Below the pieces are notes generated by a model that made no database searches, had not been told where the DNA came from, and saw nothing but the letters and a program-made list of their open reading frames with translations. The translations under genes were made by a program, and so were the position numbers. A stretch of DNA of 64,000 bases from Candidatus Freyarchaeum deiterrae (GTDB lineage Archaea > Asgardarchaeota > Jordiarchaeia > Jordiarchaeales > Jordiarchaeaceae), in the NCBI GenBank assembly GCA_037305845.1, contig CP147778.1, forward strand, positions 3,328,001 to 3,392,000. Direction: 5' to 3'. Of this stretch, positions 43,792-44,784 are shown piece after piece; the stretch's first letter is position 1, and every line of letters begins with the position of its first letter.

Positions 43792-44784
43792 ATGCCGAAG
43801 GGAATTTTTATCACATACTTCGATGCGATTCAGGGGGTTGTGCTCAGACCCGAATATGCATACGTGAAAGGCAAAACCCAAATAACTAACGGTCTGGCTC
43901 AGCAATTATACTTTGCACACTCTACCGGAGAAACTAAAAATTTCCTCGAAATAAAAATGGGCGACCTAAAAATTTCAAGCTACTACACGGGAATGGTTCC
44001 GAAATCGCGCAACCAAATCTGCCTAGCACTAGTACTGGAAGAAAAAGAGGTAGGAGCGGCCTACAAAGAGTTTCTAAAAATCAAAGCCAGTGAAATAATT
44101 AAAATATTAGATGACGGCGGAGAAATCAGAATAGAAGAAATCTATAGAGAGCTGGAAAAAAGAGAAAAGCCCGTTGATAAGAAACACCTCATGATACGAA
44201 TACTAGCAGACGAAGAAACCTGGAAAGCCCTCGCCGCCCTCAGAGACGGAAGAAACGTATCTCCAACATATCTCTCCCCTCTGAAAATGCTGGAACTTGT
44301 AACCAAAAAACAAAACGGAAATGCCAAGCCAAAAATCAGTAAAATAAAAATTTTCAAATCCCCCTCCAACTCAATAATAGACGCTCTAGAAAATGGAAAG
44401 ATACCCAAGAGCATAAGAAGAAAGGTCGGAGAAGCGCTCCTATATGCGGTAGACGAACTCCGAAGACAAATACAACAGGACATGGAGGAGAAACCCACAG
44501 ACATTCTAGAACCACTAGTCAACTCCACAAACTATCAGATCACTAATATTATTGATGAAGAAGGAATAATCTCAATAAAAGAGCTGTCGAAAAGACTAGG
44601 GATTGAGGAGGAAACAATTCTGTACCACATGAGGCAACTCAAAGAACACCTTCTAGCAGACTATACGAAGGAATACCTCTACCCGCTTTTAAAAGTAGAA
44701 ATAGAAATAAACCGCAAACAAAGCAGCGTCGCAAACAAAATCAAAAAAATAGTAAAATATATAAATGATAAAGATATCCAATAA
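43792..44784 (+). CDS. NPRL2-like longin domain plus C-terminal winged-helix protein
   Basis: MPKGIFITYFDAIQG longin start, PKSRNQICLALVL; C-terminal ISIKELSKRLGIEEETILYHMRQLKE wHTH. Confidence 0.65.
   Translation: MPKGIFITYFDAIQGVVLRPEYAYVKGKTQITNGLAQQLYFAHSTGETKNFLEIKMGDLKISSYYTGMVPKSRNQICLALVLEEKEVGAAYKEFLKIKASEIIKILDDGGEIRIEEIYRELEKREKPVDKKHLMIRILADEETWKALAALRDGRNVSPTYLSPLKMLELVTKKQNGNAKPKISKIKIFKSPSNSIIDALENGKIPKSIRRKVGEALLYAVDELRRQIQQDMEEKPTDILEPLVNSTNYQITNIIDEEGIISIKELSKRLGIEEETILYHMRQLKEHLLADYTKEYLYPLLKVEIEINRKQSSVANKIKKIVKYINDKDIQ

Follow-up and report, generated by a model that had tools for sequence, protein, structure and literature searches.

A longin and winged-helix protein encoded beside a Rag-like GTPase gene in a Jordarchaeia genome, and its candidate arginine finger

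Does the gene that begins at position 43792 of this 64,000-nucleotide stretch of DNA (here called the window) encode a GTPase-activating protein (GAP) of the NPRL2 type that uses Arg73 as an arginine finger on the Rag-like GTPase? A preliminary description, made from the letters of the DNA, had proposed that it does. A true archaeal arginine-finger Rag GAP would date the GATOR1 mechanism to before eukaryotes. Matching Asgard GTPases with their regulators is hard, since they are seldom found together in operons (PMC10933270). The host genome is a single contig of 3,576,204 bases, and the three genes that matter most lie in one direction:

41266 to 42732, plus strand: predicted surface protein with a membrane anchor (spans assigned by visual inspection), overlapping the start of the Rag gene
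42725 to 43774, plus strand: Rag/Gtr1-like GTPase with a C-terminal roadblock-like domain (P0019, 349 amino acids; Pfam Gtr1_RagA, E 2e-19), ending 17 bp before 43792
43792 to 44784, plus strand: longin and winged-helix gene of NPRL2-like architecture (P0001, 330 amino acids), an open reading frame with ATG at 43792

Fold, architecture and family of the longin protein

The architecture of P0001 was divided into two main parts:

43792 to 44160, plus strand: longin domain, residues 1 to 123, from AlphaFold2 and VIA
44527 to 44658, plus strand: C-terminal winged helix-turn-helix, residues 246 to 289 (Pfam HTH_24, E 1.2e-5, above the cut-off)

We modeled the longin domain (residues 1 to 128) with AlphaFold2 from a 150-row alignment, and the prediction was confident (pLDDT 91, pTM 0.87). 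In VIA, the model superposed on NPRL2 (8fw5_B; Z 10.7, rmsd 3.5, 123 aligned residues), with model residues 1 to 128 corresponding to chain residues 6 to 144 as ranges rather than residue pairs, and on Npr2 (Z 10.1, rmsd 3.2, 125 aligned). A Lokiarchaeota longin ranked first (Z 11.9), and many more longins fell within two Z units below NPRL2 and Npr2. In a Foldseek search with the same model, most of the top rows were chains from the GATOR1 and SEA complexes with the size of NPRL2/Npr2 (E values of 2e-3 and above), and the atlas structure clusters that matched the longin were NPR2, DENND11, and C9orf72 (TM 0.73 to 0.74). Together, the AlphaFold2, Foldseek, VIA, and atlas results place P0001 in the NPRL2/DENN class of N-terminal longin folds, and the best eukaryotic structural match of the modeled domain is NPRL2/Npr2. 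The full-length model was poor past residue 123 (pLDDT 48 overall; below 50 for residues 124 to 252); a whole-chain Foldseek search from this pLDDT-48 model still returned Npr2/NPRL2 first (E 9e-5 to 3e-4).

Beyond the longin domain, P0001 carries one winged helix that is clear by Pfam and, at about residues 135 to 190, one that is degenerate by profile alignment; a shortened mid-chain winged helix is likewise visible in the alignment of an Asgard family of about 360 residues. NPRL2 and NPRL3 have been described as a longin followed by repeated winged helices (PMC3747258). Given the fold matches, the winged helix, the family alignment, and this described architecture, "NPRL2-like" is a fair label for the fold and architecture of P0001, in agreement with the preliminary description. 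Sequence routes from P0001 to NPRL2 failed, whether by phmmer and HMM searches of the PDB or by Pfam scans. The Pfam NPR2 family (PF06218) had no match in this genome and one weak match across 151 Asgard genomes, and the best member of the longin and winged-helix family reached only E 0.055 against it. Atlas feature searches gave leads only, all below 0.9.

Whole-length homology was found between P0001 and the Asgard family of about 360 amino acids (hhalign probability 99.6, 294 columns). The wider longin family numbered 420 representatives at E ≤ 0.001 and occurred in 94 of the 121 Asgard genomes searched, with conserved residues W10 (134/152), D11 (109/152), G15, P23, H43, S63, G67, L82, and E86. 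P0001 retains G15, H43, S63, G67, L82, and E86, has Phe in place of W10, and has lost P23. Its named homologs came from Jordarchaeaceae and Freyarchaeota; no close ortholog outside the genus was found with this query among 40 relatives, and the subfamily was seen in one Jordarchaeia/Freyarchaeia genus only. By sequence comparison, P0001 belongs to a large Asgard longin and winged-helix family, of which it is a divergent representative confined to Jordarchaeia. Asgard NPRL2-like proteins and their signaling fusions were already known (Liu et al., 10.1101/2020.10.19.343400); they resemble P0001 in joining a longin to small C-terminal domains, with fusions to signaling domains such as TackOD1, and differ from its subfamily, which is divergent, restricted to one genus, and tied to a Rag gene. 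Elsewhere in the family, a canonical 358-amino-acid member (G000:C1:2037565-2039516, minus strand; also L049-L052 and L064-L066) has a longin-fused small GTPase gene directly after it across Jordarchaeales genomes. In seven other proteins (P0113, P0125, P0134, P0144, P0146, P0147, and P0155), the longin module forms the C-terminal part of chains of 1300 to 2500 amino acids, which are probably surface proteins with a cytoplasmic signaling tail.

Residue 73, its loop, and the GP motif

The features on which the proposed finger turns are as follows:

43819 to 43839, plus strand: β1-β2 loop, F10-D11...G15-V16, with Val in place of the Pro of the GP motif; its spacing equals that of C9orf72 W33-D34/G38-P39 and NPRL2 F15-H16/G20-P21
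43894 to 43935, plus strand: helix α1 and the following turn, residues 35 to 48, invariant in 16/16 orthologs; putative dimer and GTPase-binding face (PMC3747258, PMC8213707)
44002 to 44004, plus strand: Lys71, the sole invariant basic residue of the loop (16/16 orthologs)
44008 to 44010, plus strand: Arg73, the proposed finger (codon CGC, within S72-R73-N74), from sequence and ortholog comparison
44011 to 44013, plus strand: Asn74, present in 15/16 orthologs; it may correspond to Asn85 of yeast Npr2, which binds switch I (PMC12999518), a pairing that depends on the +5 register described below

The start codon, the Arg codon, and the surrounding triplet were all as first described. In the AlphaFold2 model, β4 spans residues 59 to 65 and β5 residues 76 to 82, so that Arg73 sits in the β4-β5 loop (66 to 75) of a confidently predicted longin domain, and this loop is topologically equivalent to that of NPRL2. 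The NPRL2 fragments quoted there (residues 10 to 31 and 63 to 88, with Arg78 in SRN) matched PDB 6ces_N exactly. We take Arg78 to lie in the β4-β5 loop of NPRL2 from its place between two strand-like segments. The further claim, that the two proteins align with no net offset, held at one end only. Scored against the family profile, NPRL2 residues 10 to 21 favored an offset of +5 (6.3 bits; next best, -1.4), which pairs F10-D11 with F15-H16 and G15-V16 with G20-P21. Around the Arg it did not hold: the best strand-compatible offsets were +3 for β4 and +7 for β5, and +5 was outside the top five for either strand. With the +3 and +7 offsets, the NPRL2 loop would be four residues longer than that of P0001, and the counterpart of Arg78 would fall within residues 71 to 75 (residue 71, 73, or 75), among which the scores, all near or below zero, do not discriminate. 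An Arg at some point in this loop is common in the family, but the complete SRN triplet is less frequent and occurs at 1.2 × 10−4 per residue in the long open reading frames of this genome, or about 10−3 over a few registers. The match is a fair lead, yet one chosen after the fact and without conservation, and such a match from one genome can mislead.

Conservation among homologs had been named at the outset as one of the properties by which the proposal should be judged, and the proposal fails on it. Of 16 orthologs (62 to 82% identical to P0001), only 9 had Arg at position 73, against 5 with Ser (such as P0010) and 2 with His (such as P0009), and the ortholog tree required at least four changes; one sister pair, P0015 (Arg73) and P0017 (Ser73), was joined with support of 95/91. 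While residue 73 varied, about half of the longin columns were invariant, residues 35 to 48 among them, as were S63, Y64, Y65, G67, M68, P70, K71, S72, and Q75. Because the Ser and His codons are each one base from Arg (and two from each other), Arg was probably ancestral within the clade, and an ancestral role for it, as the parsimonious hub of the three codons, is conceivable. We considered decay of the GTPase in the Ser73 and His73 lineages and rejected it: the Rag gene directly upstream retains intact G1 to G5 motifs in these carriers, and the rest of the longin protein likewise shows no decay. Covariation of residue 73 with the Asp or Glu of the Rag G3 motif was also rejected, both residues occurring with Arg and with non-Arg.

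Family-wide (n = 152), the loop segment ranged from 4 to 15 residues, an Arg anywhere in it was found in 32 sequences, and an Arg three residues before β5 was found in 11; the column of Arg73 held Arg in 9 and a gap in 81. In paralog loops as long as this one, Arg was found at position 71 in 8/20 and at position 73 in 2/20. Since Lys71 is also invariant in the orthologs, it would be a better candidate than Arg73 if a basic residue in this loop matters. In yeast Npr2, the Asn right after the finger contacts switch I, and the complex keeps its localization when the Arg alone is mutated (PMC12999518); by analogy, the P0001 loop may contact a GTPase while its Arg is dispensable.

According to PMC12290439, the SMCR8, FLCN, and NPRL2 fingers are conserved almost without exception and occur with a GP motif before β2. 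P0001 lacks the motif, having G15-V16 in 16/16 orthologs in the register fixed by the +5 offset. Judged from these alignments, both defining marks of catalytic longin GAPs, a conserved finger and GP, are missing from P0001, and since 7 of the 16 close orthologs carry Ser or His at position 73, a catalytic finger there is very unlikely. Arg73 is poor evidence for an archaeal origin of the GATOR1 mechanism; what the locus usefully leaves is a defined, testable Rag and longin pair.

The preliminary description had also set P0001, as an active GAP, against a second longin in the window, taken as non-catalytic:

9431 to 10840, plus strand: paralog P0002, a longin with a TackOD1 zinc-ribbon domain and a weak Mrr-like domain (Pfam, profile comparison)

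The two genes are true paralogs (34% identity over 96 amino acids, E 2e-12), and the 9431 longin does lack this Arg, its loop being five residues shorter with no Arg in it. The contrast itself was not borne out. The 9431 protein has the WD and GP that P0001 lacks (W-D-x-x-x-G-P, spaced as in C9orf72 W33-D34/G38-P39), and an Arg occurs in the short loop of two 9431 orthologs. The 9431 protein may well be non-catalytic; nevertheless, the comparison says nothing in favor of activity at 43792. The genome holds five longin family members, none adjacent to 43792, and none of the five combines GP with a loop Arg; a scan for GP found 9431 alone, with the proviso that more distant longins could be missed. 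Upstream of 9431, at a distance of 1.8 kb, is a Rab-like GTPase gene (window 7119-7646, plus strand; Pfam Ras, E 4e-52).

For the GAP question, Asgard longins that combine GP with a conserved Arg are more promising. Paralogs in other Asgard families (L007, L010, L026, L027, and L063) have loops of equal length with R-G at positions 71 and 72, resembling the Arg-Gly at the FLCN and SMCR8 fingers, and may be better finger candidates; some stand-alone R-G paralogs also carry GP (P0050). Asgard longins in which GP accompanies a conserved finger have been published ("Folliculin/SMCR8 longin domain-containing"; PMC12290439); they belong to the same GAP-longin structural class as P0001 and differ from it in having both features.

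The Rag-like GTPase and a predicted complex

The best PDB match of P0019 was Gtr1 (E 2e-13). Thr39 of switch I and Gln63 of switch II were invariant, and no conserved switch I Arg was found in the P0019 Rag clade. Its G3 motif reads ECGGQ, not DxxGQ, and orthologs as well as paralogs include both Glu and Asp forms. As first proposed, the longin gene is tied to a Rag-like GTPase by conserved adjacency. Four other genomes of the genus, together with four further contigs, have the Rag gene upstream (a fifth contig ends before it), membrane protein orthologs held the same position in four genomes and on three further contigs, and the order membrane protein, Rag, longin was kept in every ortholog locus with enough flank. 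Gene adjacency is nevertheless not proof of binding.

The C terminus of the membrane protein is a short, conserved, basic helix of amphipathic appearance, encoded across the Rag start (window 42650-42732); like LAMTOR1/Ego1, it could possibly act as a tether, here for the roadblock domain. At one locus (L036:2552-3948), its ortholog is called as two open reading frames of 169 and 301 amino acids, suggesting a frameshift. An Arf-like N-terminal helix on the Rag was rejected: the conserved upstream frame mirrors the gene that overlaps it, and stops interrupt it in L002 and L070. A sigma-70 promoter scan of the region is uninformative for an archaeon. The window contains a second Rag-roadblock GTPase gene 40 kb away (1513-2631, minus strand; 39% identical to the 42725 Rag), whose product is a candidate heterodimer partner by analogy with RagA/RagC, and a third Rag-like gene lies at G000:C1:1258281-1259240. 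Across the genome, Pfam Gtr1_RagA gave 13 matches above its cut-off, though most were weak. A literature search found no publication on the deposited LokiRag structures.

We predicted a complex of the Rag G domain, a longin dimer, GTP, and Mg in three runs alongside three controls. The complex scored 0.45 (runs of 0.45, 0.57, and 0.00) versus 0.00 for all three controls. This mark was reached by 58/80 solved complexes and 2/110 mismatched pairs, but with a score of 0.60 or less by only 7/80 solved complexes and by both of those mismatches. Runs agreed in at least 83% of contacts, with partner pLDDT of at least 82. The prediction lends weak support to longin-Rag binding, and the score may reflect memory of GATOR1-Rag structures.

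A proposed longin platform for the neighboring Rag, and its alternatives

Somewhat better than even, in our judgment, are the chances that P0001 is a longin platform dedicated to the neighboring Rag and that Arg73 is not used as a finger. We favor this reading on the basis of the NPRL2-like fold, the kept gene order, the invariance of half of the columns while residue 73 varies, the intact Rag in Ser73 and His73 carriers, and the weak support from the predicted complex. Longin and roadblock dimers are known as platforms in which β3 and α1 dimerize, the GTPase sits on the α1 face, and catalysis is usually not direct (PMC3747258; PMC8213707). By this model, a divergent NPRL2-like longin would have specialized as the dedicated partner of the Rag-like GTPase whose gene lies immediately upstream. 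Two longins would dimerize via β3 and the invariant helix α1, and the G domain of GTP-state Rag would dock on the resulting platform, where P70-K71-S72, N74, and Q75 of the loop could touch switch I. The longin may then act as a scaffold, an effector, or an MglB-like allosteric regulator, relaying the signal onward through its winged helices; Arg73 would be a tolerant surface residue, and the membrane protein encoded upstream probably serves as an anchor or input of the module. The fold, architecture, gene order, and conservation pattern are results of the analysis, and the dimer, docking, and role are what we infer from them.

Known systems resemble this arrangement in part. NPRL2/Npr2, the catalytic subunit of GATOR1/SEACIT (PDB 6CES, 7T3B, 8FW5, and 8ADL), shares with P0001 an N-terminal longin, predicted C-terminal winged helices, a similar length, SRN in the β4-β5 loop of this copy, and a link to a RagA/Gtr1-like GTPase. 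It differs in that P0001 has Arg in only part of its orthologs, GV for GP, a shorter loop, a degenerate first winged helix, and no detectable sequence match, and no NPRL3-like partner was found among the five family members of the genome. C9orf72, the non-catalytic longin of the C9orf72-SMCR8 Arf GAP (PMC8213707), also has an aromatic-Asp pair five residues before a conserved Gly (atlas TM 0.74), and a supporting rather than catalytic role would suit P0001 too; however, P0001 lacks GP, has winged helices rather than DENN, and belongs to a genome in which a catalytic partner was not found. The Myxococcus MglB roadblock dimer has a related fold (Foldseek TM of about 0.5) and is a platform that controls the GTPase encoded with it but contributes no Arg. 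In contrast, its fold is circularly permuted, and MglA has an intrinsic Arg, which the Rag clade does not show in conserved form.

Of the alternatives, the one that survives best is a Rag-gated DNA-binding regulator, in which the longin would respond to the GTPase and the winged helix at the C terminus would bind DNA, so that a pathway runs from membrane protein through Rag to transcription. The Pfam HTH_24 match speaks for it, as do the best matches of the second winged helix of the family, to archaeal and MarR/ArsR regulators, and the fusion of Asgard NPRL2-like longins to prokaryotic signaling outputs (10.1101/2020.10.19.343400), as in 9431. However, any winged helix weakly matches such profiles, and the C-terminal lobes of NPRL2/NPRL3 are protein contacts (PMC9646525), so that we consider this reading unlikely. 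Also unlikely, and placed just after it, is a GAP subunit whose charge comes from elsewhere, either from Lys71 or from a partner longin, with P0001 in the supporting role of C9orf72 or NPRL3. Lys71 aligns with Arg78 when β5 is the anchor, +7 being the best strand-compatible β5 offset, the paralog loops favor a basic residue at 71, and the family W10-D11 mirrors C9orf72 W33-D34. Set against this, the register scores are insignificant, no GP-and-Arg partner turned up among the five family members, and lysine fingers for Ras-type GTPases are unusual.

A broader reading, which we rate as rather improbable, takes the three-gene operon as a minimal archaeal module of surface protein, Rag, and NPRL2-like longin. 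There, the longin would detect whether the Rag is in its GTP state, or would speed up hydrolysis with no arginine finger (by Lys71 or allosterically), and would signal via its winged helix. If so, the module would represent a state before fixation of the arginine finger, and the natural Arg, Ser, and His variants would be ready-made controls. More doubtful again is a longin that does not act on the G domain of this Rag and instead binds the roadblock domain, the membrane-protein tail, or another GTPase, or serves as an exchange factor. Such a role is compatible with the weak complex score, the number of Gtr1_RagA matches in the genome, the position of the canonical family member here before a different longin-GTPase gene, and the fact that longin platforms are mostly GEFs (PMC3747258), but it sits poorly with the tight, conserved coupling to one Rag gene at all informative loci and with the zero scores of all three complex controls. 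Least probable is the original proposal, an active Rag GAP with Arg73 as its finger and the Ser73 and His73 orthologs as independently inactivated pseudo-GAPs: the SRN that matches NPRL2 77-79 in an equivalent loop, the Npr2-like Asn74, the probably ancestral Arg, and the catalytic Gln retained by the Rag are outweighed by the repeated changes at a position that is near-universal in SMCR8, FLCN, and NPRL2 (PMC12290439), the missing GP, a loop up to four residues shorter with an uncertain register, and the absence of decay or covariation in the Ser73 and His73 lineages.

Two further observations concern related genes nearby. Just before the window (G000:C1:3325036-3328067, minus strand) lie three tandem genes that encode fusions of a longin-like domain with a small GTPase. 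Downstream of P0001, two overlapping short open reading frames (window 45364-45959) resemble the halves of an intact gene at 47930-48631 and are probably a frameshifted paralog of it.
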